A DNA stretch of 64,000 nucleotides from Bacteroidia bacterium (GTDB lineage: Bacteria > Bacteroidota > Ignavibacteria > SZUA-365). This document shows positions 16,650 through 49,685 of this stretch, in pieces. A model generated the notes under the pieces. The model was not told the DNA's origin, ran no database searches, and worked only from the letters and a program-made list of their open reading frames with translations. Every line of letters begins with the position of its first letter. The first letter of the stretch is position 1. Made by a program: the position numbers and the translations under genes. Where the stretch lies: NCBI GenBank assembly GCA_027493955.1, contig JAOSJT010000001.1:3960586-4024585 (forward strand), given 5' to 3'.

Positions 16650-16723
16650 TCGGAACGGCGGGATTTGAACCCGCGACCCCTACTACCCCAAAGTAGTGCG
16701 CTACCGGGCTGCGCTACGTTCCG
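16650..16723 (-). tRNA. tRNA-Pro (anticodon GGG)
   Basis: Reverse complement folds as a cloverleaf: acceptor CGGAACG, D-arm GCGC/GCGC, anticodon stem CTACT/AGTAG with loop TTGGGGT, T-arm GCGGG-TTCAAAT-CCCGC, discriminator A. Confidence 0.85.
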
Positions 16724-24500: not shown

Positions 24501-26285
24501 CTGGAAGTGAAGGGCTCGTTCGTCGTCAACGGCAATCCGGACTGCGAGAGGGTAACGCTCACCGGTGTGGCCCCTCAATCGGGAGGCGGCGCCTCGGGCA
24601 GTTGGTGGGGTGTGTCGCTCTTTCCCTCCGCGACGCATGACATCGATTACGCCATCATCGAGAACGGAATCAACAATCTGGTGCTCTTCGATCCGGGCGG
24701 CGTTGTGAGCAACACCGCATTGCGCTACGCCTCACAACATGGCGTCATCATCAAAAACGCCGACGATTCCGGTCCCGCCGCACAATTGCTCGAGCAATGC
24801 GACATTCACGAAAACGGCTGGACCAATGTGTTTATGACACACGGAAGTCTCGATGCGGGAGGCCAACCGATACCGATCTACCCCATCATCCGCAACTCCA
24901 CCATCCGCCAGGCGCTCACCGGCGATGGTATACTTGTGGCCGATCAGGCATTTCCTCTCATTGAATACTGCGACATACACTCGAACGCGACGAATGGCAT
25001 TCGCTGCGAGCAAGTGCGCGGAGACGTTTTCGCCAACTCGAACGTCACTCTGTTGCACAGCAACATACACGATCACGAAAGCGGAGCGGGCGTATTCCTC
25101 CGAGGCAGCAATGGCCTGTTGCGCTTCAACGAGCTGTATGGAAATCTGCATGGCGTGTCGGCCAACGATGCGTCCATACTTCATGGTGCGCTGTCCTACG
25201 GCTCTGTCGGCGGTAATTCGCTGCATGACAATGATATTCACCTGCGAATAGAGAATTGTACCGGTATCTACATTGGGTTCCACTTCAGTTTGCTCGGCGA
25301 CAGTCGTGGCCACGGCAATACCTTTGTCGCGCCGGGCAGTTACCACATACAATCGGTAAATTCGGCGGGCTTCGCGCAGTGCAACAGTTACAATCCGTAC
25401 GACCCCTACGCCAATCCACCGCATTTCGACATCCCCGGTTTCCCGATGACGCCGGACATTGAAGTGTTGCCGCTCGGACCATGCGTCCCTCCCGGAGGTG
25501 GTACGCAAACGATATTGCCTAAAACCGTTGCATCCAACGAGCGTGCATTCACGCTCGGCACTTTGCCGATGTTGTTCGAAAAACACGACGATGCCTCGGT
25601 TCTGAAACTCCTGCAGACGTACGAGCTCGATCCGATATGCCGGCATGGCATACTCAGTTGGCTGGGCACCTACGCCGCGAGCGGCTCGCACAAGGATCGC
25701 TACCTCGCCATACTCGACTCACTGTCGCAATCCTGGCAGGGCGGCATGTTGGCGCAGGTACGCCATGCCGGAGTATCCGCCTTCGTCTCGCGCGGCGGCA
25801 TGCAGATGTCGCCGGGTTACGCTTCCTCAATATCCGACTCGGCATTGCACTCCTACATCACACTGAAAGCCGCAGTGACAAATTCGAAGGAGCTTTCTCC
25901 GATGGAGGTTCTCCAGGCGCAGATCCGGAACAACGATACCGTCAACAAAACGATGTCGCCGCTAACACCCGCAGCGGGAAACGGCGTCCCGGTCCCCAGA
26001 ATTTCCGTCAATGCCGGGCCGCCTCAGCCGGAGTATTCCGGACTGCTCGCATACCCCAATCCGGCGAGCGGTATGCTCAATCTCCGGGTGACAGATGCTC
26101 GTCGTTATGAGCAATGCAGGGTCACAGACTTGCTCGGACGAGTCGTCATGAAGGTAGATTTGCGTACGGTTACGGTTGAGGAAGGTTTGTACCGACTCGA
26201 CCTCTCCACGCTCCCCCGCAACCGCTATCTCGTCACGTTGTTCGGCGAAGATGGCACGGCGTGTAAAACGGTGGTGTTGCGCTGA
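21525..26285 (+). pseudogene. composite T9SS-secreted parallel beta-helix protein (about 1587 codons) interrupted by three in-frame stops: TAG 21810-21812, TAA 22719-22721, TAG 23958-23960
   Basis: ORFs 21525..21812, 21846..22721, 22728..23960 and 24132..26285 share one frame, and the gaps translate without further stops (the 23961-24131 gap reads ...SNLLIRWDPPSDYP...RWSID..., Fn3-like). Only the first piece has a signal peptide (MKNTKYLFTACLFVMMTGNAIAQ). Only the last has a T9SS CTD (AYPNPASGMLNLRV...). The middle contains pectate-lyase-like beta-helix repeats. Confidence 0.5.
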
Positions 26286-28918: not shown

Positions 28919-29004
28919 TGACCATTCCGCCGGGCGGAAGTCGGTGACTATCGAATGTGACATCGAATTGGGATGAAAAATCTATCAAATATAGTCACTC
29001 TGTG

Positions 29005-29068
29005 CTTCGGCCGAGGCCCACCCCCATCATGTAGAGACGTTGCATGCAACGTCTCTACATGGCCGAAG
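29005..29068. promoter_or_regulatory. perfect 28-bp palindrome (GTAGAGACGTTGCATGCAACGTCTCTAC) nested in an outer CTTCGGCC/GGCCGAAG inverted repeat, about 165 bp upstream of a cargo gene start
   Basis: Read directly from the sequence. Candidate operator or 5' UTR hairpin. Confidence 0.6.
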
Positions 29069-29230
29069 GGGCCGTGCATTCCCTTTGCTGAAGAGACAAC
29101 AAAAGCTATCGGCATGCATAATAACCTTGATTCCTGGTCGGATGCTGTGTACTTTGCCGTTTCGCTGGTCGTCGCCGGGCAAATAGTCATTCGTCATCCC
29201 GCATTCGTGCCACAAACCGAGGATATCGAC

Positions 29231-30883
29231 ATGAACTTTCGTAGTACCTTGTTGCTTCTCCTTCTCGTCCTCGTTTCATCCGGTCTGATCGCGCAACCTT
29301 CACTGCCCAAGACCCCGAAGGAAGATATGTCCGGCCGCATTTCTCCTGGCAATCTCACCATGTGGTTTTCCAACAACGGCATCCTGTCCTTCGATCCGAT
29401 GCGTGTTGCTGCGGGACTGGAGTGGCCAACAGGTTCGGGGAAGTTCCTGGCCTTTTCCGAGGGATTACTCTTCGGTTGCCGGAATCCGGAGCCGTCGGTG
29501 GGCGGAGCCAATTACATTTCCGGCTTGCAACCTGGCAACATCCTCGCAGACGGACAGGCAAGCGATCCCGCCGATCCGGCGCACCGCATCTACATGGTTC
29601 GCAGAATGGACCGGACGTCCTTCGAAAACCTGAGTAGAGTCGAACAGTCGCGGTACATTTTGGACTTTCAGGAATGGCCGGTGCATCTGGGCGCTCCGTG
29701 GATTGACGGAAACAGAGACGGCATGTACGAAGCGGATTTTGACGCCTGGCTCGAAGGCACACCCGGCCAGGATTGCCCGAAATTTCCGGGAACGGAAGCG
29801 GCGTGGTTCGTCATGAACGATCTCGACAGCGCGCGCACGACGAAGCTGCACGGCTCCGATCCCGTGGGCGTCGAAATCCGCATGCTGATCTGGGGTTCGG
29901 ATGAAGCCGGCGTCCCGGCAAATACACTCGTGCGCGACATCAAAATCATCAACCGGAGCGGGGCCACGCTGAATGACGTCTACCTGTCCTGGTGGGTGGA
30001 TCCAGAAGTCGGCGACCCCTTGGACGATTTCGTCGGAGTCGACACCATCCGCAATATGGCCTACGCGTACAACAGCAGGGATCACGACAACGAATACGGC
30101 GTTGCACCGGCTATCGGCTGGAGATTGCTGCAGGGTCCGGTAGTCCGCGATCCAAACTCGGTGGCGCTGTATGATTACGGCTGGAAGCAAGGCTACCGCA
30201 ATCTGCCGCTGAGCAGCTTCGTGCATTATATAAACACCGACGCGGTGTACCGCGACCCGGAACTGAGCGATGAAAGCGGCGCTACACAGTGCTACAACAA
30301 CATGCAGGGGCTGACGTGGAACGGCGCGCCGTTCGTCAATCCTGTGAGTAACAAAACGAGCGTATTTACCCTCAATGGCAATCCCCTGACGGGCAGCGGC
30401 TGGGTGGACGGCATCGTGAATCCACCCGACGACAGGCGCATGATGATGAGCACCGGTCCGATATCTCTCGCCGACGGGGAAGAGCAGCAAATCATTATCG
30501 GATCGGTGGCCGCGCTGGACACCTCCGCGAAAGCGAGTGTCTATAAATTACTCGTCAACAGTGATGAATTCCTGAATTTTTTACTGCGCCATGTGACGTC
30601 GGCGTCGGCACCGGCAGCGATCCCACACTTTGCCATTTCGGACGTGTTTCCCCAGCCCGCAGCGGACAGGATAACAGTGCGCTTCGATGTGGACAGTCCG
30701 CAGCACATCACGCTTGACGTGTACGACATGCTGGGCCGGCGACTGCGGCGCCATCTCGATCTGTCCACTGCCGCAGGCAGCCACAGCAGCACAATCACAA
30801 CGAGCGGCTGGGCTCCGGGCATGTATATACTCCGAATGCAAGGTGCACAGGGGAGTGTGAGCAGGCGCTTTGTCGTACGATAA
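29231..30883 (+). CDS. T9SS-secreted hypothetical protein
   Basis: ORF 28973..30883. Signal peptide from ATG 29231 (MNFRSTLLLLLLVLVSSGLIAQ). C-terminal Por sorting domain (ISDVFPQPAADRITVRFDV...GMYILRMQG...). Confidence 0.65.
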   Translation: MNFRSTLLLLLLVLVSSGLIAQPSLPKTPKEDMSGRISPGNLTMWFSNNGILSFDPMRVAAGLEWPTGSGKFLAFSEGLLFGCRNPEPSVGGANYISGLQPGNILADGQASDPADPAHRIYMVRRMDRTSFENLSRVEQSRYILDFQEWPVHLGAPWIDGNRDGMYEADFDAWLEGTPGQDCPKFPGTEAAWFVMNDLDSARTTKLHGSDPVGVEIRMLIWGSDEAGVPANTLVRDIKIINRSGATLNDVYLSWWVDPEVGDPLDDFVGVDTIRNMAYAYNSRDHDNEYGVAPAIGWRLLQGPVVRDPNSVALYDYGWKQGYRNLPLSSFVHYINTDAVYRDPELSDESGATQCYNNMQGLTWNGAPFVNPVSNKTSVFTLNGNPLTGSGWVDGIVNPPDDRRMMMSTGPISLADGEEQQIIIGSVAALDTSAKASVYKLLVNSDEFLNFLLRHVTSASAPAAIPHFAISDVFPQPAADRITVRFDVDSPQHITLDVYDMLGRRLRRHLDLSTAAGSHSSTITTSGWAPGMYILRMQGAQGSVSRRFVVR

Positions 30884-31074
30884 AGCGATTTGTAAAGGCC
30901 AGCGCCTCATGCTGGACGTTCGCCACGACGTCCCGCTTTGCTAGTGTTACTGTGATGGAAGCGCCCCTCCACCGTAGACGCCGATACCGCTCTACGCCTC
31001 GTTGAGTGCACAGACCGGCAGAAAACGCAGAACAGGAGATCGGACCCGCCAGGCGTGTCATCCCTCTGTTCTTT

Positions 31075-31132
31075 CTGTTTTTTCTGCGGTCCACCCCTCT
31101 CTTTTCTGCGCCTTCTGTTTTTTCTGCGTTCC
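31075..31132. repeat. two 18-bp CT-rich direct repeats (CTGTTTTTTCTGCGGTCC / CTGTTTTTTCTGCGTTCC) 40 bp apart, upstream of flotillin
   Basis: Read directly from the sequence. Confidence 0.6.
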
Positions 31133-31307
31133 CGTGTTCTGTGGTCCCGCATTTGTTCGTCTGACAAAGAACCGGTACGTTTGTATGTAATGGCGAGTAC
31201 TTCGCCTGATTCTCCCTATCCCAAGATACAGGGCGTTTCTTCGCTCCGGCATCCATTGCCCGAAAACAAAGTCGATACGCAATATCCACGTTTCTCTGGA
31301 GGCTTTC

Positions 31308-32693
31308 ATGGCTACCTGGCTCATCGTCATCGTCGTTCTCGTTCTTGTCGCCGGCTTCATCTTCTGGATGACGCGGCAGTACAGGAAGGCCGGTCCCAAC
31401 GAGGTGCTGGTCATCTCCGGCCGGCGCAGCGTCATTACGACGCCCGACGGCGCAAAGCAGGAAATTGGCTATAAATTCCGCATCGGTGGCGGTTCCTTCG
31501 TCAATCCTTTCAGCGAGCAAGCGGATACGCTGCCCATCGAGGTTGTCAGCGTCAACATCCGCACCCCGGAAGTGCTGTCCAAGGACGGCATCCCCATACT
31601 TTCCGAATCTTCCGCACAGGTCAAAATCGATTCCAACGAGTACTCGATTTTCCTCGCAACGCAAAACTTCATGGGTGGCGGCACCGACGCGGTGCGCGAA
31701 GTGGCCCAGACGGTGCTCGAAGGCAAGGTGCGCGAAAGCATCGGCAGCATGACGGTGGAGGAGCTGTATCAGAATCGCCAGGAATTCGCCAACCGCGTGT
31801 ACAACGCCGTGGTGCGTGATCTCGGCAGCATGGGTCTCGTCATGATTTCTTTCGCGCTGAAGGACGTCACCGATACGCAGGGCTATCTCGAAGCGCTCAG
31901 CAAGCCGCGCATCGCGGCCGCCAAGCGCGACGCCATCGTCAAGCAGGCCGAGTACGACCGCGACGCGGAAATTTTTGCCGCGCAGGCGAAAAAGGAAGCC
32001 GATATCGCCAAGCTTGTCGCCGCCGCCGAAGTGGCCGGCCGCAACTGGCGTAACGAAGAACTCAAGGCAAAATCCCAAATCGAAGTCAGTAAAGTGCGCG
32101 CCGCCGCCGATACTTCCTACGAGCTCGAACGCCACAAACTTGCGCAGGAAGTGAAGCGCGAGGAATACAAGGTCAAGTTCATCGAGACCGAAGAGCAAGC
32201 CAAGGTGCAGACCGAGGAAATCAAGCGCAAAGAAAAGGAACTCGAAGCCAACGTCATCAAGCCGGCCGAAGCCCGCAAAGTGCAGATTCAGACCGAAGCC
32301 GAGGCCGAAAGCTTCCGCGCCCTCCGTGAAGCGGAAACGAAAGCCACTGTCCGCGCGCGCGAAAATGAACTCGACGCGGAGCGCATCAAAATGCTCGGCA
32401 AGTCCGAAGCCGACGCCATGACCGAAAAAGCCAAGGCCTACGGCGAGTACAATCAGACCGCACACTATCAGATGATTCTGGACATCCTGCCCGAGCTCAC
32501 GAAAAATATCGCCGAGCCGCTCTCGCGTATCGACAAGATCACGATGATCAGCGGCGCCGACGGCAAGCTCGGCACCTCGCAGATCACCGGCCAGGTGGCG
32601 GACATTCTCGCCAACGTGCCCGAGGTCGTCAAGTCCCTCACGGGCGTCGATCTCGCGAAATACCTCAGGGAAAAACTCGGCGGCGATGCGTAA
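31308..32693 (+). CDS. flotillin-like SPFH/band-7 protein (YqiK-type)
   Basis: 461 aa with an N-terminal TM helix, an SPFH domain, then a long EA-rich coiled-coil (flotillin repeats). Confidence 0.85.
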   Translation: MATWLIVIVVLVLVAGFIFWMTRQYRKAGPNEVLVISGRRSVITTPDGAKQEIGYKFRIGGGSFVNPFSEQADTLPIEVVSVNIRTPEVLSKDGIPILSESSAQVKIDSNEYSIFLATQNFMGGGTDAVREVAQTVLEGKVRESIGSMTVEELYQNRQEFANRVYNAVVRDLGSMGLVMISFALKDVTDTQGYLEALSKPRIAAAKRDAIVKQAEYDRDAEIFAAQAKKEADIAKLVAAAEVAGRNWRNEELKAKSQIEVSKVRAAADTSYELERHKLAQEVKREEYKVKFIETEEQAKVQTEEIKRKEKELEANVIKPAEARKVQIQTEAEAESFRALREAETKATVRARENELDAERIKMLGKSEADAMTEKAKAYGEYNQTAHYQMILDILPELTKNIAEPLSRIDKITMISGADGKLGTSQITGQVADILANVPEVVKSLTGVDLAKYLREKLGGDA

Positions 32694-32797
32694 TGCATGG
32701 CAACCGGACTCCCATGTCTCAACGAAACCGCCGCAAGAACCACGCACGCAGCGCGGTGGCCGCGGCATTCAAGTCATAGACAGCATGAGGTAGCACA

Positions 32798-35149
32798 GTG
32801 ACCGCAGACAGAATACATTTGATCGGGTCCTCGCCCACGCTCAAGGTCGCCGCGAAAGCCAAGGCGCTGAAAGAGCAGGGTGTGGACGTCATAGACTTCA
32901 GCGTGGGCGAGCCGGACTTCGGCACGCCCGCGCATATCAAGGATGCCGCCAAGCGCGCCATCGACGAAAACTTCACCAAGTACACCGCCAACGAGGGCAT
33001 TCTCCCGCTGCGCAAGGCCATCGCCGCGCATCTGAAAGAGGAATGCAATCTCGTGTACGATCCCGGGACGGAAATCATCGTCAGCAACGGCGCGAAGCAC
33101 TCCATCTACAACGCCATGATGGCCATCGTCAACGACGGCGACGAAGTCATCATCCCCGCGCCGTACTGGGTGTCGTATCCCGAAATGGTGAAGCTCGCCA
33201 ACGGCAAGCCGGTGATCGTACAGACCCGCGAGGAAGACGGCTTCCGCCTGACGCCGGATCAGCTCCGCGAACACATCAACGCGAGTACGCGCGCGGTGTT
33301 TCTCAACAATCCTTCCAATCCCACGGGCTCGGGCTATTCGCGCGAAGAACTCGAGGCGCTGGCCGACGTCATCGTCGAGGAAGACATCTACGTCATTGCC
33401 GACGAAATTTACGGCAAGCTGATGTACGACAGCCTGAAGTTCACCCGCTTTGCATCGCTCGGACCCGAGGTGTGGAAACGCACCATCACCATAGACGGCG
33501 TGTCCAAGGCCTACAGCATGACGGGCTGGCGCATCGGCTGGGCCGCCGCACCGAAGGACATCGTTTCGGCCATGGCCAAGGTGCAGAGCCACGCCACGTC
33601 CAATCCCTCGTCCATATCGCAACGTGCGGCGCTGGAAGCGTACAAGGGACCGCAGTACGAAATTTCCAAAATGGCGGCTGAGTTCGAGAAGCGCCGCAAT
33701 TTCGTGGTGTACAAGCTGCAATCCATCCCCGGCGTTTCCTGTCCCATGCCCCGCGGCGCGTTCTACGCCTTCCCGAACGTGAAGTCCTTTTATGATAAGG
33801 AGTTCGAAGGTGTACCCATCCGCAACAGCTACGGCATGGCATATTACCTGCTCAAGCATGCGAATGTGGCCATTGTGCCGGGCGACGCCTTCGGTTCGGA
33901 CGACTTCATCCGAATCAGCTATGCAACATCCATGTCCAACTTGCAGGACGGCATGGCCCGCATTGCCGAGGCTCTCTCGAAGCTCAAGCCCGCGCCCAAG
34001 CGCAAGCTCATCAAGCTCGCGAATACGGAAACCGTGGTGAAGCATATCGTGCAGTCCGAAGACGAAGTGCGCATCGACAAGCGCAACGCCCTCGTGGCCG
34101 AAGCGGAAGCCGAGCTGAGCTACAGCAACTACTTCGAATGGAATGCCAATATCAACGGACTCATCGTGCAGCTCCGCACCAACGTGGGGCATCTGTACGA
34201 TTTCTGGGTGGAAAACTGGTATCCCGCGCAGCTCGAAGCAGACATCGAACCGCATGGCGTGATTTACGCTGTGGACGGTGTGGCGGGGCGCGAATCGCAT
34301 GCCTTCTACAACAGCGACACCAAAACCGGCATCCTGTTCAACTGCGACCATTACGGATCGCTGCGCTCGCTCGCTCTCGGACTCGTCAGCGACGTTGCCG
34401 AGCGGCATAGCGACGTGCACGCCATTCGCGCGCTGTCCATGGACATCAACGGCGAGGGCGTGCTGTTTATCGGACCATCCGGTACGAAAAAGACGGAGCT
34501 GTTCTGGCGCCTCTTCTCCGAACGCGATGAAACCGCACTGCACAGCTACGACTATCTGTTTGTGCGCTATGGCGGCGGCTATGCGGCCGCGGACAATCCC
34601 GAGCGCAAGATGTACATGCCCACCAATACCGTCGAGTCCTGGGACGGCCTGGCAAAGCTTTTCGACAAGAGCAAATGCGAGAACGTGACTACGCGTGTCG
34701 AGGACTGCCGTAACGACAAGCACAAAGTGAACGACAGTTGCCGCCTCAACAGCGGCGCGCCGTACAGCTACTCCTGCGCGAAGAAAAGCCATGCCATGCT
34801 CGATCCCTACTGGCTGGGGGGCATGTCGCGTCACGTCAAGCGCATCGATATACGGCATGTGTTCATTCTCCGCAACGATCCCGTGTCGGCCGCAGTGCAG
34901 AAGCTCGATGTCGAGGATGCGCTGCATCAGATTGAGGCCGGCTATCCGGCGGGTACGTCCGGAGGCAAGCAGGAGCAGTGGTACAATCCGCATCTGCTGC
35001 TGCGCGGGCAGGATCGTTTCGATTTGCAGAAAACTTTCTTTGGCAAACTGTTCCGTTCGGCCGCGGTGTATCAGCTCAACGCCGGTACAGCCACGGTGAC
35101 GGAAATGGCGCAGCATGTTTTGAAAAACGTCGGCGTAAGCGGAAGGTGA
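32798..35149 (+). CDS. fusion protein: class-I aspartate aminotransferase (residues 1-400) plus a PEP-carboxykinase(ATP)-like C-terminal domain (residues 400-783) with altered active-site motifs
   Basis: Complete AspAT ([13 protein letters not shown] PLP-lysine region). The C-terminal domain aligns to the PckA nucleotide-binding half: HYGSLRSLA vs [23 protein letters not shown] vs [23 protein letters not shown] vs [24 protein letters not shown] vs IFLTADAFGVLPPVSKL. Confidence 0.7.
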   Translation: [783 protein letters not shown]

Positions 35150-35153
35150 GACA

Positions 35154-37013
35154 ATGGCGAAAGACATCTATGACGATGCATACTATAAAAAGTTCTACGA
35201 GCAGCTCGTTCCATTGCTCAAGGGACCGAACATCAAGGAAGTGGACCTCAAGTGGCTGGAGCCGCGGGTAAAGGAATACGCGCAGAAAACGAAACACGGC
35301 TCGCACGTGTGGCGTTCGGTGCAGAGCTCGCGTCTGGCCGCCAAGACCGTGTATCTCGGTACAGAGAAGGTCCGGCTCCCCTATCTGCTCCCGTATCAGG
35401 AAAAAGTGGTCAAGGGCGCGCCGGACGAGCTGGAGAAAGTGCTGAAATGGATGAAGACACTGCCCTTCATCAAGCTCACGCGGCAGATGGGCAACAATCC
35501 GGATTTCAATCCGGTTTGTACGCTGTATCTGAGTGTGGGCGACTGGCGCAACTCGCGTCTCGCCTACATGTGGGGCAATTTGCTGGACGATCCCGGAGGT
35601 CGGCCCGGTCCGGAGATCACCATGATTCACATCCCCGAGGAGCATCAGAGTCGCCAGCAGATTCTGACCATGCCGGAGTTCAATCTGAACATCTGTCTCG
35701 GCAGCGATTATCTCGGCGAGGAGAAAAAGGGCTTCCTTCGCCAGGCCATGTGGCTGGCGGATGAACGCGGTATGCTCGGTCTGCACGCGGGAAGCAAAGT
35801 GGTGGTCGCGCGCGACGCCAAGAGCAACGATCTCAAGCGTCATGGCGTCATCCTTTTCGGTATGACTGCTACGGGCAAATCCACCTGGAGCTGCCATCAG
35901 CTCGAGATGGATCCCAAGCGCGGCGAGATGACGTACGCGTCGCAGGACGACATTTGCTTCCTCAAAGACGACGGATCGGCCTACGGATCGGAGCACAACT
36001 TCTATGTGAAAACCGATGTGCGCAAGAGCGATCAGGAAGCGATGTTCCACGCACTCACGCACAAAAGCGCCCTGCTCGAAAATGTGATGGTCACCGCGGC
36101 CGGCGATGTCGACTTTCTCGACGAGAGTCTCTGCGGCAACGGTCGCGCGGTGGTGCGCATGGACAAGCTCGACATCGAGCGCGACGGCAAGCGCATTTCC
36201 ATCGCGGCGGATTCCATCAATCTGCCCAGTCTGGAAAAGAACGACGCACTGTGGTTCGCTTTCATCACCCGCCGTAACACGCTGATGCCCTTCTCGCAGA
36301 TGCTCACGCCGGAGCAGGGTGTGCTTGCGTATCTGTTCGGCGAATCCACGCTGAGTTTCGCGGCCAATCCCGAAAAAGCCGGCGAGTCCGTACGCATCGT
36401 CGGCACCGACGATTTCATCATCGGCAGCCGCGGCGCAAAGGTGAACCGCTTCTACGACATCATCATGAAGCTCACGACGAAGTATCCCGGCCAGGTGAAT
36501 TTCCGCCTGTACAATACCGGCGGCATGGGCGAGGTGATCGAGGAGTACGAAGAGCGCGGCGTGGCGAAAAAGCGTCTCGTGCGCAAGGCCGAGCGCGTGC
36601 CACTCGATCTCATGGCGGCCATTCAGCGCGGCGATCTCCGCGGCACGAACAAGTACGAAAAGGGCGTGCTTGGTACCATGTCCATCGTGGAAGCCGACGG
36701 CCGACGCATGGACGAATGGGATGTGCACAAACTCTACACCGACGAACAGATCGACCATCTGATCAAGGACATCATTCAGGGTCGCCGTGCCTTCCTGGAA
36801 GAAGTGTCGAAGGAAGGCCTGCGTCCCGAAATCATCGCCGCGGCCGAGCGCAGCTTCCGCGCCATGGGCGACACCAGCGTGCGGAGGAGCAGCTCGCCCA
36901 ACGCTTCCACCGGCGGTTACAACATCCCCGCCCCGCCCGAGCCCCGCGTGATTGTGCGCAGCGACGAGCCCGTATCGCGCCCCCGCAAGCCGGGAGTCTG
37001 GCGCTGGCGGTAG
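35154..37013 (+). CDS. divergent phosphoenolpyruvate carboxykinase (ATP)-family protein with a Pro/Arg-rich C-terminal tail
   Basis: 619 aa with YLGEEKKG (PckA YGGEMKKG), ILFGMTATGKST (kinase-1a), DPKRGEMTYASQDDICFLKDDGSAYGSEHNFYVKT (PckA [30 protein letters not shown]) and YNTGGMGE (PckA NTGWNG). Starts 4 bp after the fusion gene. Confidence 0.7.
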   Translation: MAKDIYDDAYYKKFYEQLVPLLKGPNIKEVDLKWLEPRVKEYAQKTKHGSHVWRSVQSSRLAAKTVYLGTEKVRLPYLLPYQEKVVKGAPDELEKVLKWMKTLPFIKLTRQMGNNPDFNPVCTLYLSVGDWRNSRLAYMWGNLLDDPGGRPGPEITMIHIPEEHQSRQQILTMPEFNLNICLGSDYLGEEKKGFLRQAMWLADERGMLGLHAGSKVVVARDAKSNDLKRHGVILFGMTATGKSTWSCHQLEMDPKRGEMTYASQDDICFLKDDGSAYGSEHNFYVKTDVRKSDQEAMFHALTHKSALLENVMVTAAGDVDFLDESLCGNGRAVVRMDKLDIERDGKRISIAADSINLPSLEKNDALWFAFITRRNTLMPFSQMLTPEQGVLAYLFGESTLSFAANPEKAGESVRIVGTDDFIIGSRGAKVNRFYDIIMKLTTKYPGQVNFRLYNTGGMGEVIEEYEERGVAKKRLVRKAERVPLDLMAAIQRGDLRGTNKYEKGVLGTMSIVEADGRRMDEWDVHKLYTDEQIDHLIKDIIQGRRAFLEEVSKEGLRPEIIAAAERSFRAMGDTSVRRSSSPNASTGGYNIPAPPEPRVIVRSDEPVSRPRKPGVWRWR

Positions 37014-37062
37014 GACCCTCACCCTCCCTCACCCCCTTCCCCCTCTCTCCGCCTCAGGAGGA

Positions 37063-37589: not shown

Positions 37590-37886
37590 ATGAGGAGCGA
37601 TCTTGATGCTGTTGAAGAATCGGAAGATCTCAAGTTCGAGGTTTTCCCGAATCCTGCCCGGAAGGAAATCACGTCTCGATTCGTTCTTGCGGCACCCGCT
37701 TTAGCGCGTCTGTCGCTGTACGATATCTCAGGACACTTCATTCAAGACCTGTACCGTTCAGGCACTCTCGATGCCGGTACGCACCAGGTAACATGTACCC
37801 TCGAAAACATGCAAGTAGGTTATTATCACGTCGTGCTGCGCGTGAACAAAAACGTCGTGCGGAAATTGATCCATATAGTACTCTGA
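37590..37886 (+). pseudogene. orphan T9SS C-terminal sorting domain (98 aa) with no upstream cargo and no signal peptide
   Basis: ...KFEVFPNPARKEITSRFVLAAP...LSLYDISGHFIQDLY...GYYHVVLRVNK is a complete Por CTD. Nothing protein-like lies upstream in any frame. Confidence 0.4.
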
Positions 37887-37900
37887 TCGTGGGGCGCATC

Positions 37901-40159
37901 ATGACGAACACCAGATATATAACAATCACTTCTGCCCTGCTTCTGCTCATGCTAACAACGGACGCGGCGGCACAATGGAAACAGCTTCCCATCCCCGCAG
38001 TTCATGGCAAGATTGCCTGCGCATCGGACGGGTCGCTCCGGGTACTGACCAACGGCACACTCTGTTACAGCGATGCGGGCAGGAAGTCTTGGACCTACCA
38101 ATCCTTCCCGTACGATCTGCGTGATCGTACCTTCTACCCGCTGCGGCAAATGCTTCTTGCTTCCGACGACACAATGCTGATCATCTCCATGAGTGGAGAT
38201 GTGTATTCCGTCGTACGGGGAGAGGAGACCCTACGTCCGGCTTCTGAGGGATTGCGGTCGAAGAATCCTCGTGGTCCCTTTCTCTTGACCTCTCGGGGCA
38301 AGCGCGGCGAACTCCTGCTCTGTCATGAGCAATTCTACGCATCCACAAACAACGGCGCAAGCTGGGAACTGCGGTACAGCGATCCAGGATCAGGCAGTTT
38401 TGGTCCCGGCGCGGTGGATCCGTGGAATACGGATGTGATGCTCCTGCTCAATGCGAATATCATTCACAGATCCACCGATGCGGGCGCGACGTGGCGGATG
38501 ATCCCTATGGAGCTGTCCTCCTACGGAGCGGCCGACATGATTGTCTGCCCCGACGGACAGATTCACGCGGGGCGCTACCACTCATCGAATTGCGGCGAGA
38601 CGTGGAGAACGTACCCTATGGAGGGAGGTATCGACGATTATTGGGGCGATGACAACCTCAAGTATGTATACAACAGTCAGGAACATAGCGTGTACGCATT
38701 AAACCGGCTTTACGGATTGTTCTGCCGGGATCTCGACAATCCGACTTTCCAGATCACCACATTGTCCTCATCCTACGACAGATGGATACGGTCGTTCCGT
38801 CTTAGTGCTGATGTCTCGTACGATGCACGATCGGGCAAAATGTTCGCCATCGTCAATGATTCACTGTACGAATATCTGCGGGGGGAGGTCGCGTTACTGA
38901 GCAACACCGTTTCGGCAGCGCCGGTCAACGGTTTGCTCGCGTACAATGCGGAAGGGGATACGCTTTTGGTCTCAACACCGCATACCACTCTGAAGAGTAC
39001 CGATGCAGGCCGGACATGGGAATCAACCTCAATACGGGGGGTAGGTCATTTCAAGATGGAAATGATGCATTCCAAGAGAAGCAAAGATATGATCTACCAG
39101 TTCAACAGGGAGAATCAAATTATCTGGGTAATAGAGAACGAGAAGTCGTTAGAGAAATGGATCAGACTTGTCGGACCTTGCAAGCCCACCTACGATCCGT
39201 TCAGCAAGGATACCTTCCACGGTGGAAGCAACGGACTCTGGAGATTGAACGATTCCGAGGTGCTGAGCGCGGATTCCACCGCTGTTCTCATGGGCGAGTT
39301 ATATGCGGGCACGCCCGTGCTTGCTCAATGCCTGTCCTTCGACAAGCATAGGGAAGGTGCTATACTACTCGCCGGCCTCGATCGGGACGATGGGAGAACC
39401 TCGCAGCTCCACCGCACCGGTAACTACGGTTTTAGTTGGGCGCGGATTACCTCCATCGCCCTGAATGAGACGCCGATTGACATCATTTTCGATGATGCTG
39501 TTGAAAACAGGATTCTCGTGATCGAGCCGACGGGAGTGCATATCACCACCGACGACGGCGTGACCTGGCAATATCGAGACCCCGGTCTTGGAAGCAGAAA
39601 GATCACATCCGTAGCTATCGATCCGGACAATGCATCGACAATGTTTCTCGGCGTCACCTCTCCGTCGAGACTCGACCCCATCCCGCAGTCGCGCGAAGAT
39701 GGCGGAGGCGTGTGGCAAAGCACGGATAGTGGTATGACGTGGGGCAAGCTCCCCATCAACGGCTTGCACAACTATAATATTTCGCATGTCCTCGCGCTTC
39801 GCAATCCCCGCCGCATTTTAGTCGGCACTCCCTGCGGCGCATATGAATATCTTCTTGATTCGACCACCTCCGTCACACCGCAGAGCGCTGCGCCTACCGG
39901 CGGGGTGGAATTCGAGATATACCCAAATCCAGGTCGTGGAGTTGTGAACATCAGGTACACGATTAGCGCCCCCTCGGCTGTGCGGGTTGCGGTGTACGAC
40001 GTTCTCGGAAGGGTGGTGAGCGTTCAATCCGTGGATGCGGCATCGGGCGGCAGTCACACCTTGACCCTGGCTACCGCGGCTCTGCGTGATGGTGTGTACA
40101 TCGTGACGCTTGAGACACAAAGCGGAATTGCCGCACGCAGAATGCTGCTTGCGCGATGA
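37901..40159 (+). CDS. T9SS-secreted BNR / Ycf48-like repeat protein
   Basis: ORF 37793..40159. Signal peptide from ATG 37901 (MTNTRYITITSALLLLMLTTDAAAQ). Repeats STNNGASWE, STDAGATW, STDAGRTWE, TTDDGVTWQ and STDSGMTWG. C-terminal Por CTD (EFEIYPNPGRGVVNIRY...). Confidence 0.7.
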   Translation: MTNTRYITITSALLLLMLTTDAAAQWKQLPIPAVHGKIACASDGSLRVLTNGTLCYSDAGRKSWTYQSFPYDLRDRTFYPLRQMLLASDDTMLIISMSGDVYSVVRGEETLRPASEGLRSKNPRGPFLLTSRGKRGELLLCHEQFYASTNNGASWELRYSDPGSGSFGPGAVDPWNTDVMLLLNANIIHRSTDAGATWRMIPMELSSYGAADMIVCPDGQIHAGRYHSSNCGETWRTYPMEGGIDDYWGDDNLKYVYNSQEHSVYALNRLYGLFCRDLDNPTFQITTLSSSYDRWIRSFRLSADVSYDARSGKMFAIVNDSLYEYLRGEVALLSNTVSAAPVNGLLAYNAEGDTLLVSTPHTTLKSTDAGRTWESTSIRGVGHFKMEMMHSKRSKDMIYQFNRENQIIWVIENEKSLEKWIRLVGPCKPTYDPFSKDTFHGGSNGLWRLNDSEVLSADSTAVLMGELYAGTPVLAQCLSFDKHREGAILLAGLDRDDGRTSQLHRTGNYGFSWARITSIALNETPIDIIFDDAVENRILVIEPTGVHITTDDGVTWQYRDPGLGSRKITSVAIDPDNASTMFLGVTSPSRLDPIPQSREDGGGVWQSTDSGMTWGKLPINGLHNYNISHVLALRNPRRILVGTPCGAYEYLLDSTTSVTPQSAAPTGGVEFEIYPNPGRGVVNIRYTISAPSAVRVAVYDVLGRVVSVQSVDAASGGSHTLTLATAALRDGVYIVTLETQSGIAARRMLLAR

Positions 40160-40619: not shown

Positions 40620-41150
40620 ATGCACCTGCTGAACGTGCATCACGCGGCCTTCGTGCGCTATGTGCGGGCGATGACGAAGGACAGCGAGCTGGCGCGGGAT
40701 GTCGTGGGCGAGACGCTGCTGGCGGCATACGAGAGCTTTCACAACCTGCGCGACCCGGCATCGTTTCTGTTTTTTCTCATCGCCATCGCGCGGCGGCAGT
40801 ACTGGAAAATGAGCCGCTGGGGCAGGCTGTTTACGCGCATGGAAACGAAGCACGAGGATCTGGTGATAGATGGCGTAGCGGAGCCGGGAGTCGCCCACGA
40901 TGTCGAACTCCTCCATGCAGCCCTCGCGAAGCTGCCGCAAAAGCAGCGGGAAGCCCTGGTTCTCTTCGAACTGTCCGGATTGAGCCTGAATGAAGTTCAC
41001 GCACTGCAGGGCGGATCGCTTTCAGGCGTCAAATCCCGGATCGCACGGGCAAGGAAAAAACTCGCGGAAATGCTCGGGGAAAGACAGACCGAGCCCCGTA
41101 CATCCGAGGATGCCAAGATCGTCATAGCTGATACAAAGGTCGGACAATGA
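40620..41150 (+). CDS. ECF-subfamily RNA polymerase sigma-70 factor
   Basis: ORF 40563..41150. Sigma-70 region 2 (ETLLAAYESFHNL) and region 4 (REALVLFELSGLSLNEV). Overlaps the next gene by ATGA. Confidence 0.8.
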   Translation: MHLLNVHHAAFVRYVRAMTKDSELARDVVGETLLAAYESFHNLRDPASFLFFLIAIARRQYWKMSRWGRLFTRMETKHEDLVIDGVAEPGVAHDVELLHAALAKLPQKQREALVLFELSGLSLNEVHALQGGSLSGVKSRIARARKKLAEMLGERQTEPRTSEDAKIVIADTKVGQ

Positions 41151-42490
41151 GAGCAGACGATAATAAACTGGAACACCTTCTCAACGAGGCCCGAACTGCG
41201 CCGCCCTTTATCTCAGTCCATGCTGCGAAGCGCTTCTTTGCATCACATTCCGGTACAAGCGTTCTCGCCACTCAATCAAGAAAAAAGGCAAACATTCGCA
41301 GAATTATAATCTCAGGAGGCGTTATGACAGCGATCACAGCAATTGTTCTCATCGTCGGCTTGTACGCACCTCAACAGCAGCTTCCTTCATCTTCGCCACC
41401 AAAACGGAGCGCGGAAAGCGTCACAACACACGCGCGTGCCGATGATTCCACGAAATCCGTAAACAAAACGAAGATGGAAGTCGGTACACCTCGACAGTCG
41501 GACGTCACGAAAGACGCCGCACTGGATGTTTACCCCGTTTCGGAGAAATTAAAAGAGACCGCTCGCAAAGCACGGAATGACGGGGATGCTCCGACATCGG
41601 CCACGCGACGACTGGAACTGTTTGCAGCGTGGACCAAGGAGAGAATACGAGGTTGCGAGGTGTACGATCTTGATTCTCTCGAACTCAGTCGCATCGGCAT
41701 CATCGTGTCCGATGATAGCACAATCTCACGTTCGTACGGAAATTTTACGATCGGTATGAAAGAAGACATGAGCGACGGTTCAGTTCTGATACGCATTCCC
41801 ATTGGAAAACCTCGTAGCGTAACCGACAGCATCAAACTCGCCCGCGCGATCGAGAAATCGACCTTGCATTCGGGTCCCGGCATCTCCGAACCCATACGGC
41901 CGGCAGAACGGGTTCCAGTTCACGAAGTGCTCATCACCAACTCCAGAGGTCGCACCTTCAGCCATGCCGTCTCCACCGGCAATCAGGATACCGTCGCAGC
42001 CATTGGCTCGGGCGATTACTCCGGCGACGAACTTGTCGCGATCCGGGTACGTTTCCAACAGACAACGCTGACACCGGGAGCCGAAGATTATTACTACCTC
42101 TACTGGTACGAGCCCACAAAAACCTTTCTCGATCTCATGCCGCCGCGCGTTCGTCAGGCAATCGAGCGCAGAAAAGGCATGGATAGCAGAATTGCACACG
42201 ACGAAAGCGCCGTGGCTAAATCGCTGAAGACGAGCAGCGTCTACCCCAACCCCGTCACCAGCGATATCGCCACCCTGGACTACACGCTTCGTGAGAAGCG
42301 TCGTGTTGCGATCTCGGTGTACGACATCACAGGCGAGCGAATCAGGAACGTCGCCGTCTCGGAGCAGCGTGAACCAGGTGCCTGGCAGGAGAATATTTCT
42401 CTCTCCGGAATTCCGGACGGCTACTATTTACTTGCTGTCACGACGGACAACGGTGAGCAGAACATCCATCCAATGGTACTGAAAAGGTAG
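41147..42490 (+). CDS. putative anti-sigma factor: single-pass membrane protein with a C-terminal T9SS-type sorting domain
   Basis: Translationally coupled to the ECF sigma gene. Short cytoplasmic N-terminus, one TM helix (IIISGGVMTAITAIVLIVGLY), and a C-terminal 80 aa SVYPNPVTSDIATLDYTL...ISVYDITGERI...GYYLLAV. Confidence 0.5.
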   Translation: MRADDNKLEHLLNEARTAPPFISVHAAKRFFASHSGTSVLATQSRKKANIRRIIISGGVMTAITAIVLIVGLYAPQQQLPSSSPPKRSAESVTTHARADDSTKSVNKTKMEVGTPRQSDVTKDAALDVYPVSEKLKETARKARNDGDAPTSATRRLELFAAWTKERIRGCEVYDLDSLELSRIGIIVSDDSTISRSYGNFTIGMKEDMSDGSVLIRIPIGKPRSVTDSIKLARAIEKSTLHSGPGISEPIRPAERVPVHEVLITNSRGRTFSHAVSTGNQDTVAAIGSGDYSGDELVAIRVRFQQTTLTPGAEDYYYLYWYEPTKTFLDLMPPRVRQAIERRKGMDSRIAHDESAVAKSLKTSSVYPNPVTSDIATLDYTLREKRRVAISVYDITGERIRNVAVSEQREPGAWQENISLSGIPDGYYLLAVTTDNGEQNIHPMVLKR

Positions 42491-46327: not shown

Positions 46328-47029
46328 ATGTCTGCACTGGTACGATTCCTGCAATCCACCATTCTGAGCAAAGTCGTCATGGCCGCGACGGGACTGATTC
46401 TGGTCCTGTTTATTCTCGGCCACATGATCGGCAATCTTCAGATGTACCTGGGACAGGACAAAATGAACACCTATGCGGCGACCTTGCAGGGCCTTGGCGG
46501 TTTGCTCTGGCTCATCCGCGGTGTGCTGCTGCTCTGTCTCGTCCTTCATGTCATCACATCCATCCGACTCAAACTGCTGAACATGTCGGCCAGGCCTGTC
46601 GCGTATTCCAAAAAAGAGTACGTGAAGGCATCGCTGACCTCACGCACGATGATGTGGACCGGATCGCTGATTTTCTTCTTCGTCACCTATCACCTCCTGC
46701 ATTTCACCATCAAGGCGACGAATCCCGTGTACGGCGAGCTGGTGGACGCCGCGGGTCGTCATGATGTTTTCTCGATGGTCGTGCTGGGGTATCAGAACGT
46801 GCTGATTTCCCTGACCTATTTCGTCGCGATGCTTCTTCTCGGCTTTCATCTGTTTCATGCCATCGCGAGCATGTTTCAGACGCTGGGGGTGAATCATCCG
46901 AAGTACACGCCCATGATCAACGGGCTCGGCGCGGTAGTCTCTATTGTCATCGTCGCCGGCTTCCTTTCCATACCCCTCGGGGTTCTTTTCGGCTGGATCG
47001 CATTGCCGGCAGGAGTGATAGTACTATGA
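46328..47029 (+). CDS. sdhC: succinate dehydrogenase / fumarate reductase cytochrome b subunit, b558 (Bacteroides) type
   Basis: 233 aa, five TM helices with conserved His residues. First gene of the sdh/frd CAB operon. Confidence 0.8.
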
Positions 47030-48939: not shown

Positions 48940-49685
48940 TGAAACTCACATTGCATATCTGGCGTCAGAAAAACGCCCGCGATAAAGGCCGCATGGTAAC
49001 GTATCAGGTCGGTGGCATCGTCGAGGATATGTCCTTTCTCGAAATGCTCGACGTGCTCAACGAGCAGCTCATCACCAACAATGAAGAGCCCGTGGCGTTC
49101 GATCACGATTGCCGCGAGGGCATTTGCGGCGCTTGCGCGCTGACGGTGAACGGCATTCCCCACGGTCCCGAAAAGGAAACCACCATCTGTCAGTTACACA
49201 TGCGTCACTTCAAGGACGGTGATACGATTTACATCGAGCCCTTCCGCGCGCGGGCGTTTCCCGTGATCAAGGATCTCGTGGTGGATCGCAGCGCCTTCGA
49301 CCGCATCATGGCGGCCGGCGGTTTCGTTTCCGCCAACACCGGCGGCGTGCCCGACGCCAACGCCATACCCATCAGCAAATTCAACGCCGACAAGGCGATG
49401 GATTTCGCCGCCTGCATCGGCTGCGGCGCCTGCGTGGCTTCGTGTAAAAACGCCTCGGCCATGCTTTTCGTGGCGGCCAAGGTGTCGCAATACGCCTATC
49501 TGCCGCAGGGGCAGGCCGAACGCAAGCGTCGCGTGCTGCGCATGGTCGCGCAGATGGACAAAGAGGGCTTCGGCGGTTGTACCAATCAATACGAATGCGA
49601 AGCCGTATGTCCGAAAGGCATCAGCGTCGCAGGCATCGCGCTGATGAACCGCGACTTCCTGAAAGCGAGCCTGACGGAAGAATAA
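48939..49685 (+). CDS. sdhB: succinate dehydrogenase / fumarate reductase iron-sulfur subunit
   Basis: 248 aa with Cys clusters for 2Fe-2S (CREGICGAC) and 4Fe-4S/3Fe-4S ([16 protein letters not shown]). TAATG overlap with sdhA. Confidence 0.9.

Follow-up and report, generated by a model that had tools for sequence, protein, structure and literature searches.

PckA (EC 4.1.1.49; PF01293; E. coli structure 1AQ2, Thermus structures 1J3B/2PC9) is an ATP-dependent phosphoenolpyruvate carboxykinase (PEPCK) whose two-domain fold is common to the protein described here, a PEPCK-like enzyme that carries a C-terminal tail. The likeness extends to the P-loop K/T(S), the DD pair, the His and Lys Mn ligands, the Arg65/Arg333 equivalents, Tyr207, and the adenine-stacking Arg. 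The tailed PEPCK departs from PckA in having extra sequence inserted behind the P-loop, behind R331, and between NTGG and R481, in a 50-aa linker that leads to a conserved C-terminal peptide, in a Met at T455, and in its near-universal operon partners. Its nearest sequence relatives form the NF006821 (PRK09344.1-3) subfamily, which has the same catalytic residues and shares with the tailed clade the insert that follows the P-loop, the one that precedes R481, and an association with a further domain, here called X. The two clades differ in how X is carried: it is fused to the PEPCK N-terminus or absent in the NF006821 sister clade, whereas in the tailed clade it belongs to a separate gene that joins it to an aspartate aminotransferase (AspAT-X). 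No characterised member of either clade was found in the literature searched, nor was any description of the tailed clade, the fusion, the tail, or the gene cassette.

The locus lies within the 64-kb stretch of DNA analysed (64,000 nucleotides, hereafter the window) and comprises the following features.

31308..32693, + strand: flotillin gene, 461 aa, first in the cassette, with an N-terminal hydrophobic segment, SPFH/Band_7, a coiled coil, and a Flot domain
32798..33997, + strand: residues 1-400 of the 783-aa fusion, its class Ib aspartate aminotransferase half, Aminotran_1_2
33998..35149, + strand: domain X, the other 383 aa of the fusion, a compact P-loop module of PEPCK fold whose catalytic motifs are degenerate
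35141..35156, + strand: gene junction GGAAGGTGAgacaATG, with an SD-like element over the fusion stop, a 4-nt spacer, and the PEPCK-like start
35154..37013, + strand: PEPCK-like open reading frame, ATG start, 619 aa
35154..36860, + strand: PEPCK-like catalytic body, residues 1-569, with an N-terminal domain and a P-loop nucleotide domain; full-length Foldseek match to ATP-PEPCKs
36861..36962, + strand: variable linker, about residues 570-603, Pro/Ser/Ala-rich and predicted disordered
36963..37013, + strand: conserved C-terminal peptide DEPVSRPRKPGVWRWR, residues 604-619, and stop codon

An earlier note on this DNA had called the last gene a full-length but divergent member of the PckA family. 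The open reading frame is exactly as it described, and profile and fold matches confirm homology to PEPCK far past chance. An identical protein in GenBank (MCZ7557762.1) is named 'phosphoenolpyruvate carboxykinase (ATP)'. Pfam PEPCK_ATP (PF01293) scores 81.9 bits against a gathering cutoff of 26.5 and covers residues 158-342 only, NF006821 matches residues 29-560 with an E value of 3e-80, and hhalign pairs residues 179-552 with E. coli Pck at a probability of 97. The predicted structure, of moderate confidence (pLDDT 69.8, pTM 0.76), is matched by Foldseek to the Thermus and E. coli PEPCKs 2pc9, 1aq2, and 1j3b over ~580 aligned columns (E 7e-21, probability 1.00, TMt 0.66-0.72). As modelled, the 619-aa protein adopts the two-domain PEPCK fold. 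The PckA signature blocks listed in the note all occur, and in order: YLGEEKKG at residues 186-193, LFGMTATGKST at 234-244, DPKR at 253-256, the DD pair (265-266) of DD..DDG..E.N.Y.KT, and YNTGGMGE at 453-460. Only its spacing of 'DD....DDG' needs correction, being one residue short.

The catalytic site is intact. Residues R60, Y186, K191, K192, H211, T238, K242, S243, D265, D266, K286, R331, and R481 correspond, in this order, to E. coli R65, Y207, K212, K213, H232, S250, K254, T255, D268, D269, K288, R333, and R449, and all 13 are invariant, across phyla, in a 12-sequence family alignment. The pairing of R60 with R65 was assigned by inspection (MAFFT set R60 one column off), and the catalytic residues in E. 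coli numbering (R65 to R333) are those of the 1AQ2/1AYL literature. Every Mn/Mg, phosphoryl-transfer, and OAA/PEP residue checked is conserved, together with the adenine-stacking Arg. HAGSK (residues 211-215) does stand in place of HCSAN, as had been pointed out, with its His retained as H211, the equivalent of E. coli H232. The suggestion of a catalytically dead paralog is ruled out, since the His and all other catalytic residues are kept. These intact residues make it most likely that the protein is catalytically competent, and OAA + ATP ↔ PEP + CO2 + ADP would be its reaction.

A changed specificity has to be weighed against this assignment, namely a neo-functionalised PEPCK-fold enzyme with another substrate pair or phosphoryl donor, such as another 2-oxo-dicarboxylate or a non-adenine nucleotide. 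The protein is only about 16-21% identical to characterised PEPCKs (E. coli-type PckA) and falls under all curated NCBIfam PEPCK cutoffs, with 36.9 bits against 590 for the TIGR00224 pckA equivalog and 26-43 bits against 636-815 for NF006819/20/22/23. The NF006821 cutoff of 369 is likewise not reached by the window protein (270.4 bits) or by the cluster representative P0241 (275), while the true members P0244 and P0245 exceed it with 416 and 390 bits. Within the adenine pocket (E. coli R449, I450, I452, and T455), R481, V482, and L484 are kept and T455 is replaced clade-wide by M487; a clade-specific insert follows R331, and some more distant relatives have lost PEPCK residues (K213N, R333H). 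Nevertheless, the checked contacts to OAA/PEP, CO2, Mn2+, and phosphate (R65, Y207, K212, K213, H232, D269, and R333) are conserved, the partner is a typical AspAT with oxaloacetate as its product, and the PYC/OADA carboxylase domain joined to the distant relative P0301 is a further pointer to oxaloacetate chemistry. A shift to other substrates is improbable on this evidence.

At least 285 species-level genomes encode a tailed PEPCK. Identity within the clade is about 57-94% over the 80 best loci, which points to strong purifying selection, and the hosts are Ignavibacteria-like Bacteroidota, Calditrichota, Aminicenantes, KSB1, Fischerbacteria, and Caldisericaceae. Caldithrix abyssi (DSM 13497) is a cultured carrier of the cassette, in which the PEPCK-like gene is Calab_3641. 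In an NJ tree whose deeper nodes are weakly supported, the tailed clade is monophyletic (bootstrap 94) and forms a separate, long-stemmed branch next to the NF006821 group. Its members are 37-43% identical to NF006821-type PEPCKs and 21% identical to E. coli Pck. By these sequence comparisons, the tailed clade is the sister of the NF006821-type PEPCKs.

The cassette has the order flotillin, AspAT-X, PEPCK, with PEPCK last. The TGA of the fusion open reading frame occupies 35147-35149, and the four nucleotides gaca separate it from the PEPCK-like ATG at 35154, as the note had observed. An SD-like AAGGTGA overlaps the stop of the AspAT-X gene, a layout compatible with translational coupling of the two genes. 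Across loci, the gap between the end of X and the pck start has a median of 24 nt and ranges from -11 to 489, and a terminator and promoter scan within the cassette gave no signal exceeding shuffle expectation. AspAT-X lies immediately upstream of PEPCK in 71 of 73 loci, and of the 61 loci whose upstream sequence reaches 4 kb or more, all but one have flotillin there; in the rearranged loci L087 and L088 all cassette genes still adjoin. The cassette spans at least five bacterial phyla, in which the flanks are otherwise unrelated. Spacing and synteny together indicate that the three genes probably form a conserved operon. Flotillin, AspAT, and a separate X are absent from three sister-clade neighbourhoods; compared with these and with two sister sequences, the tailed clade is unique in its tail and in having flotillin and AspAT-X as neighbours. 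Elsewhere in the window, Rfam reports one tRNA and otherwise nothing, and an sdh/frd-type cluster lies ~10 kb from the PEPCK-like gene. A role in CO2 fixation for the succinate-propionate pathway, as the note had suggested, would be conjectural.

This conservation bears on the plainest account of the gene, an ordinary housekeeping PEPCK whose neighbours are co-regulated at most, with no complex and with a tail and a flotillin unrelated to catalysis. Automated pipelines already name the protein PEPCK (ATP), its catalytic site is intact, tblastn with E. coli Pck detects no second PEPCK within the 64-kb window, and metabolic reconstructions of related lineages just count one PEPCK. Such an enzyme would not, however, be expected to stay with the same two neighbours in almost every locus across phyla whose flanks are otherwise unrelated, to have covalent X-PEPCK fusions in its sister clade, or to end in a cross-phylum terminal peptide on a variable linker of the kind typical of interaction motifs. 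A plain housekeeping role is therefore unlikely, and the tailed PEPCK seems to belong to a membrane-linked enzyme assembly that has not been described before, rather than being a spare copy.

The immediate neighbour contributes an aminotransferase. The N-terminal half of the fusion matches PF00155 Aminotran_1_2 with 255.7 bits and the AspAT structure 1j32 over its full length (E 2.7e-106), and the PLP lysine K237 lies within SKAYSMTGWR. These matches identify it, at the level of sequence, as a genuine class Ib AspAT. It scores 437 bits against the NCBIfam aspartate transaminase model NF004769, whose cutoff of 617 is not reached. Because class Ib enzymes are often bifunctional, the aminotransferase could favour a substrate other than aspartate.

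Domain X has no match in Pfam or PDB by sequence search. Its AlphaFold model (pLDDT 88, pTM 0.87) finds ATP-PEPCKs as the best Foldseek matches (E 1e-16, TMq ~0.72, ~14% identity), and hhalign relates X to the PEPCK-like family at a probability of 93. Relative to free-standing homologs, its motifs read HAIRAL for HSIHGS, GPSGTKKT for GTGKST, and HSYDY for HSDDW, with PERKMY kept. Profile comparison places X nearer to the tailed-PEPCK lineage than to E. coli Pck, which suggests that it is an ancient paralog of that lineage. The earlier note had instead proposed that the gene was duplicated in tandem and that AspAT captured one of the copies. Both proteins do have the PEPCK fold and are adjacent, and the closeness of X to the tailed lineage makes a very old duplication plausible. 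A recent local duplication of pckA, with one copy possibly decaying, is hardly credible: a direct BLASTP comparison of the two proteins yields nothing (E = 2), X is a separate old family at ~14% identity whose free-standing orthologs occur in archaea as well as other phyla, both genes have been kept as such over at least five phyla, and the downstream copy is strongly constrained with its active site intact.

Free-standing X homologs occur in Thermodesulfobacteriota and archaea, at loci with no adjoining PEPCK-like gene and no flotillin gene, so the link between X and PEPCK rests on the cassette and on fusion proteins. In Bathyarchaeia, Asgard archaea, and Planctomycetota, among other groups, members of the sister clade join X and PEPCK in 880-900-aa proteins (hhalign probability 100, E 5e-53; BLASTP 9e-51), whose X is likewise degenerate. 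These covalent fusions lend Rosetta-stone support to an X-PEPCK complex. The suggestion that the PEPCK-like protein is half of a heteromeric enzyme thus gains strong comparative support from near-universal adjacency and from the sister-clade fusions.

PEPCK and HPr kinase belong to one P-loop superfamily, and free-standing X homologs show weak Hpr_kinase_C/ScmC matches (24 bits for Hpr_kinase_C, PF07475, against a gathering cutoff of 33.3). One might accordingly imagine that the cassette is a module for signalling or defence, or a mobile one, whose PEPCK-fold proteins would work as protein kinases in the manner of HprK and phosphorylate flotillin or another target. The window X, however, has no Hpr_kinase_C match and its best fold matches are PEPCKs, not HprK; PADLOC returns no match for any of the three cassette proteins at E <= 0.001; the flanks of inspected loci carry no integrase or mobile-element signature; and the 619-aa protein has a complete two-domain PEPCK fold with small-molecule binding residues. 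A kinase module is consequently a very remote prospect.

The tail, which the note had described as a Pro/Arg-rich stretch of 60 aa, does hold 18 Pro and Arg in the last 60 aa, against ~10% elsewhere in the protein. Its composition is not all that marks it, for the terminal peptide is conserved across phyla. The linker before this peptide has no sequence conservation across phyla, and pLDDT falls below 50 from residue 574 onward. Nearly all of the 80 best loci end in the consensus RPR[RK]xGxWR[WS]R-COOH. R609, P610, and W616 are invariant in the 12-sequence alignment, and P613, R617, W618, and R619 reach 90% conservation or more there; the last 12 aa have a net charge of +5. The peptide is missing from two sister-clade sequences (P0439 and P0244), and no other open reading frame in the window or in ~1 Mb of fetched loci has a WRWR-type end, which is confined to the PEPCK-like genes. 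A conserved terminal peptide on a variable linker looks like a typical interaction motif. Flotillin, the membrane, AspAT-X, and the enzyme itself are candidate targets, all of which fit the phyletic pattern.

The first gene of the cassette had been overlooked in the earlier note. Its product scores 91.7 bits for Band_7 and 25.1 bits for Flot, just below the cutoff of 27, and residues 59-452 match human flotillin-1 (9l3g/9bq2) with an E value of 5e-74. The N-terminus MATWLIVIVVLVLVAGFIFW is hydrophobic. By these matches the gene encodes a genuine flotillin of the SPFH superfamily. SPFH proteins form cages attached to membranes, and such cages organise particular partner proteins or enclose them, as in the human flotillin-1/2 complex (PMC11260169).

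The preferred model builds on what the sequence and fold comparisons show: a PEPCK fold with its catalytic residues intact, membership of the tailed clade, a conserved operon, X-PEPCK fusions elsewhere, and a conserved tail. This model is somewhat more likely than not: the tailed PEPCK and AspAT-X would form an assembly that interconverts aspartate, oxaloacetate, and PEP, encoded in an operon with a flotillin, with X docking the two enzymes and the tail serving as a docking motif. Oxaloacetate is both the product of AspAT and the substrate of PEPCK. In the proposed scheme, whose substrates and flux direction we infer, the AspAT half would catalyse aspartate + 2-oxoglutarate ↔ oxaloacetate + glutamate and PEPCK would catalyse oxaloacetate + NTP ↔ PEP + CO2 + NDP. 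X, a putative degenerate PEPCK paralog in which the metal-binding His and part of Walker A are gone, may act as a docking or regulatory module that keeps the aminotransferase on PEPCK in a physical complex. Channelling would then consist of labile oxaloacetate handed directly between the AspAT and PEPCK active sites. The basic-aromatic C-terminal peptide on its flexible linker may be a short linear docking motif, with the co-encoded flotillin or anionic membrane, or else AspAT-X, as its partner, and the assembly might be scaffolded by flotillin. The adjacency of flotillin could mean co-regulation instead of a physical scaffold. A stronger version is more tentative and probably does not hold: both enzymes would be dedicated flotillin clients, and RPR[RK]xGxWR[WS]R would recruit the enzyme to or inside a membrane flotillin cage, forming an aspartate/oxaloacetate/PEP metabolon.

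If the preferred model is right, a widespread uncharacterised class of PEPCK exists, with hosts that include Ignavibacteria-like Bacteroidota, Calditrichota, Aminicenantes, and KSB1. It is lumped with PckA by annotation pipelines despite the missed curated cutoffs, and the metabolism reconstructed for these lineages, which are abundant in sediments and the subsurface, depends on that annotation. The AspAT-pseudoPEPCK and archaeal X-PEPCK fusions would then represent a conserved enzyme-pseudoenzyme complex at the handover of unstable oxaloacetate. The clients and function of bacterial flotillins are poorly defined, and a cross-phylum three-gene operon with a deletable peptide offers a handle on them. 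Should the flotillin-client version be true, central-carbon enzymes would for the first time be seen tied to a flotillin scaffold in a genetically hard-wired way, and the tail would be the flotillin counterpart to cargo-loading peptides.

A comparison with known systems shows where the cassette is familiar and where it is not. HflK/C-FtsH is an SPFH cage with its client, and in bacteria SPFH proteins are known to partner with membrane proteases, NfeD proteins, and signalling or secretion components. The putative partners in the cassette, in contrast, are soluble central-carbon enzymes, and no description of a genomic link between flotillin/SPFH proteins and such enzymes was found in the literature searched. 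Encapsulin cargo-loading peptides and BMC encapsulation peptides are cargo-targeting peptides of protein compartments. They have the same layout as the tailed PEPCK, in which a folded enzyme runs into a disordered linker of variable sequence and ends in a short conserved peptide. The cassette differs from these systems in that it has no encapsulin or BMC shell gene and in that RPRRPGxWRWR is unlike their motifs; purely by analogy, flotillin would be the sole candidate for the 'shell'. Finally, X resembles the enzyme/pseudoenzyme pairs of the HprK/PEPCK superfamily (PF07475, ScmC PF27840) in having a PEPCK/HprK P-loop core and, as is typical of regulatory pseudoenzymes, the fused X has lost key catalytic residues while keeping structural ones. 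Compared with HprK_C, it covers more of the PEPCK fold (TMq ~0.72 to whole PEPCKs), falls below every Pfam threshold, and is fused to an aminotransferase.

The PEPCK-like gene is the last of a three-gene cassette in which it follows a flotillin gene and a gene fusing an aspartate aminotransferase (AspAT) to X, a C-terminal 383-aa domain with a PEPCK fold and degenerate motifs:

31308-32693, flotillin gene, first in the cassette
32798-35149, AspAT-X fusion gene, second in the cassette
35154-37013, forward strand, PEPCK-like gene, ATG start, 619 aa

The 783-aa fusion ORF stops at a TGA (35147-35149) that is overlapped by an SD-like AAGGTGA, and the ATG of the PEPCK-like gene lies four bases on. 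The ORF reading agrees with the earlier note on coordinates and the 4-bp spacing, and all the PckA signature blocks it listed are present in the order it gave. The motifs run from YLGEEKKG (186-193) through HAGSK (211-215), LFGMTATGKST (234-244), DPKR (253-256) and a DD...DDG...KT block to YNTGGMGE (453-460). Membership in the PckA family is borne out by Pfam PEPCK_ATP (81.9 bits, cutoff 26.5), by NCBIfam NF006821 (E 3e-80, residues 29-560), by hhalign to E. coli Pck (probability 97, residues 179-552) and by Foldseek, which matches an AlphaFold model of moderate confidence (pTM 0.76) to solved ATP-PEPCKs at E 7e-21 over ~580 columns. The homology to PEPCK is not due to chance. The family assignment is already in databases, where an identical GenBank protein is named PEPCK (ATP). 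No other PEPCK, PPC or PYC occurs within the 64-kb window.

The protein is nonetheless highly divergent. Identity in structural alignment is 16-18% to solved ATP-PEPCKs and 12-15% to GTP-PEPCKs, and no curated NCBIfam PEPCK cutoff is reached (NF006821, 270 of 369; TIGR00224, 37 of 590). When 1.84 billion representatives were searched exhaustively with phmmer, only 329 matches reached E <= 0.001, and those examined belong to its own family, the tailed clade, or to its NF006821-type relatives. PDB PckA has an E of ~5e-7 among 177,635 sequences; in so large a library this value would rise beyond 0.001, which probably puts canonical PckA out of reach. The low identity and missed cutoffs suggest a PEPCK-fold enzyme neo-functionalised for other substrates, a reading contradicted by the AspAT partner and the fully conserved oxaloacetate (OAA)/PEP site. 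In the E. coli PckA numbering of the structural literature, R65 corresponds to R60, Y207 to Y186, K212/K213 to K191/K192, H232 to H211, S250 to T238, K254/T255 to K242/S243, D268/D269 to D265/D266, K288 to K286, R333 to R331 and R449 to R481. The case of a catalytically dead paralog, which the earlier note named as a refutation, does not apply, because every checked catalytic residue has its counterpart; these residues are also invariant in a 12-sequence alignment of the tailed family from several phyla. The only departure of note lies in the adenine pocket, where Met replaces T455.

Certain PEPCK-fold relatives of 533-546 aa (P0249, P0252, P0253, P0257 and P0264; 26-32% identity to the window protein) lack key residues, with K213 replaced by N, D or Y, R333 by H and the R65 equivalent missing; in P0253 the His and the DD pair are missing as well. 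All are nonetheless annotated PEPCK (ATP), and their function probably differs. Giant proteins (P0301, P0307, P0321 and P0329) carry an internal PEPCK_ATP domain; P0301, of 2669 aa from an Omnitrophota MAG, also has a PYC_OADA carboxylase domain, making it a PEPCK-carboxylase mega-fusion.

The first gene of the cassette encodes a genuine flotillin (E 5e-74 to human flotillin-1, nearly full length); the human protein assembles into cages attached to the membrane (PMC11260169). In the fusion, the AspAT half matches 1j32 at E 3e-106, which identifies it by homology as a genuine class Ib aspartate aminotransferase. The cassette order is identical in Caldithrix abyssi, one Ignavibacteria MAG and one Aminicenantaceae MAG, with different outer flanking genes. 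Among 80 species loci, 71 of the 73 with enough sequence have X directly upstream of the PEPCK-like gene, at a median distance of 24 nt, and 60 of the 61 informative for flotillin have it upstream; in the two rearranged loci the cassette genes all remain adjacent. Operon membership is drawn from this synteny. A defence or signalling module is an unlikely alternative, against which stands the lack of any PADLOC match to the three proteins.

Only two informative loci lack the full cassette: L057, where flotillin and AspAT-X are both missing within 6 kb and the PEPCK tail is degenerate (ending ...SKVRPPRPVGY), and L027:715-3987, where AspAT occurs without X and the tail of the PEPCK is unrelated and frameshift-like. 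The AspAT-X fusion and the PEPCK-like gene are separated in one Ignavibacteria MAG by a 92-aa HepT-like toxin gene (L003:7611-7889). Other features of the window include the following:

16650-16723, reverse strand, tRNA gene, the sole Rfam match in the window
46328-49685, sdh/frd-type cluster (flavoprotein 47026-48939, Fe-S subunit 48939-49685), with an unassigned 233-aa ORF upstream
49931-55957, 2008-aa ORF after this cluster, with many HYDIN/ASH/Cep192-type Ig-like repeats
59422-61476, 684-aa ORF with CoA_binding_2, Succ_CoA_lig and ATP-grasp_5 domains, the architecture of ADP-forming acetyl-CoA synthetases

Very long antisense ORFs over the cassette at 30795-32768, 32774-35167 and 35076-37022 (all reverse strand; 657, 797 and 648 aa) are probably by-products of a GC-rich codon usage and not genes. 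Four flanking ORFs (24132-26285, 28973-30883, 37793-40159 and 41147-42490) end in Por_Secre_tail, a type IX secretion sorting domain, consistent with a Bacteroidota/Ignavibacteria-like host.

Close homologs of ~610-620 aa, with 57-94% identity among the 80 best loci, are present in no fewer than 285 species-level genomes, whose hosts include Ignavibacteria-like Bacteroidota, Calditrichota (among them the cultured Caldithrix abyssi), Aminicenantes/Acidobacteriota, KSB1, Fischerbacteria and Caldisericaceae. Several cassette MAGs labelled Chromatiales, Ectothiorhodospiraceae or Eubacteriales (L009, L021, L022, L025, L026, L055, L060 and others) are likely misclassified, their cassette proteins being 75-94% identical to Bacteroidota/Ignavibacteria-like ones or ~60% identical, like those of Aminicenantes. 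In a neighbor-joining tree with weak deep nodes, the tailed family forms a single clade (bootstrap 94) with a long stem, beside the NF006821-type PEPCKs (37-43% identity; E. coli Pck, 21%). The 60-aa Pro/Arg-rich tail described earlier is indeed enriched (18/60 residues), but it is more than that: a variable, predicted-disordered linker leads to an extreme C-terminus conserved across phyla. Its consensus is EPVxRPR[KR]PGxWRWR in the branch of Ignavibacteria and Calditrichota, and WESKSRPRRxGFWRSR in Aminicenantes. Within the window and ~1 Mb of fetched loci, such an ending occurs on the PEPCK-like genes alone. Docking motifs typically have this arrangement, in which a flexible linker connects a folded enzyme to a short conserved peptide at its end, and the tail may be one.

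Domain X has neither a Pfam nor a PDB sequence match, and BLASTP detects no similarity between it and the downstream protein (E = 2). Its confident model (pLDDT 88) best matches ATP-PEPCKs (E 1e-16, TMq ~0.72, 14% identity), and profile comparison with the PEPCK-like family gives probability 93. Free-standing X homologs (357-391 aa; Thermodesulfobacteriota and archaea) keep the textbook motifs HSIHGSC, APTGTGKST, HSDDW and ERKFYIRT; fused X has IRAL or VRGM, GTKKT, and SYD or SND instead, losing the putative metal-binding His, Walker-A glycine and first Asp while retaining the P-loop Lys/Thr, second Asp and ERK lysine. By profile, X lies far nearer to the window PEPCK lineage (probability 96 to P0245, an NF006821 member, and 79 to the window protein) than to E. 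coli Pck (17), which argues that X is an ancient truncated paralog from within the tailed/NF006821 lineage. The tandem duplication proposed earlier holds in that both genes carry PEPCK-type modules, but its timescale was wrong; profile comparison speaks against a local duplicate. At L005:8001-10095, a catalytically intact free-standing X (P0199) is directly followed by an NfeD/Peptidase_S49 gene. NfeD is a classic partner of SPFH/stomatin proteins, and this neighborhood, unless coincidental, could point to a second, independent link between X and SPFH proteins.

Members of the sister NF006821 clade have a length of ~545 aa or of ~880-900 aa, the long forms occurring in Bathyarchaeia, Freyarchaeota, Altiarchaeota, Planctomycetota and others. 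Those tested, P0439 and P0244, are an N-terminal X joined to PEPCK (hhalign probability 100, E 5e-53; BLASTP 9e-51), and X is catalytically degenerate in all three long forms read (these and P0469). P0439 and P0244, the two sister-clade sequences read for it, lack the terminal peptide. Flotillin, AspAT and separate X are absent from the three sister-clade loci examined; tail, flotillin and AspAT-X therefore appear jointly in the tailed clade only.

These arrangements suggest a mechanism. AspAT would make or consume oxaloacetate, which PEPCK would interconvert with PEP, while X, as a docking or regulatory pseudoenzyme, would hold the two together and favor direct hand-over of this labile intermediate. 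Flux could run in either direction, serving gluconeogenesis from amino acids or an anaplerotic fixation of CO2; the succinate-propionate role offered in the earlier note found no specific support. The basic-aromatic terminal peptide (net +5) would tether the enzyme to a partner, be it flotillin or an anionic membrane, AspAT-X or the enzyme itself, among which the phyletic pattern does not discriminate. That the tail targets these enzymes to a flotillin-scaffolded or flotillin-enclosed Asp/OAA/PEP metabolon would be of high interest if true, and we consider it rather improbable. A less likely reading, that of an ordinary housekeeping PEPCK whose neighbors share at most its regulation, would leave the X fusions and the conserved tail unexplained. 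The searchable literature yielded no description of the tailed clade or its terminal peptide, the AspAT-pseudoPEPCK fusion and its X-PEPCK counterparts, or a flotillin-containing operon conserved across phyla. The earlier proposal of a heteromeric enzyme with the fusion protein gains support from the X-PEPCK fusions together with gene adjacency. X is covalently linked to PEPCK in the NF006821 clade, whereas in the tailed clade it is linked to AspAT and encoded beside PEPCK; this comparison, the strongest available evidence, supports a model where X and PEPCK would work together physically.
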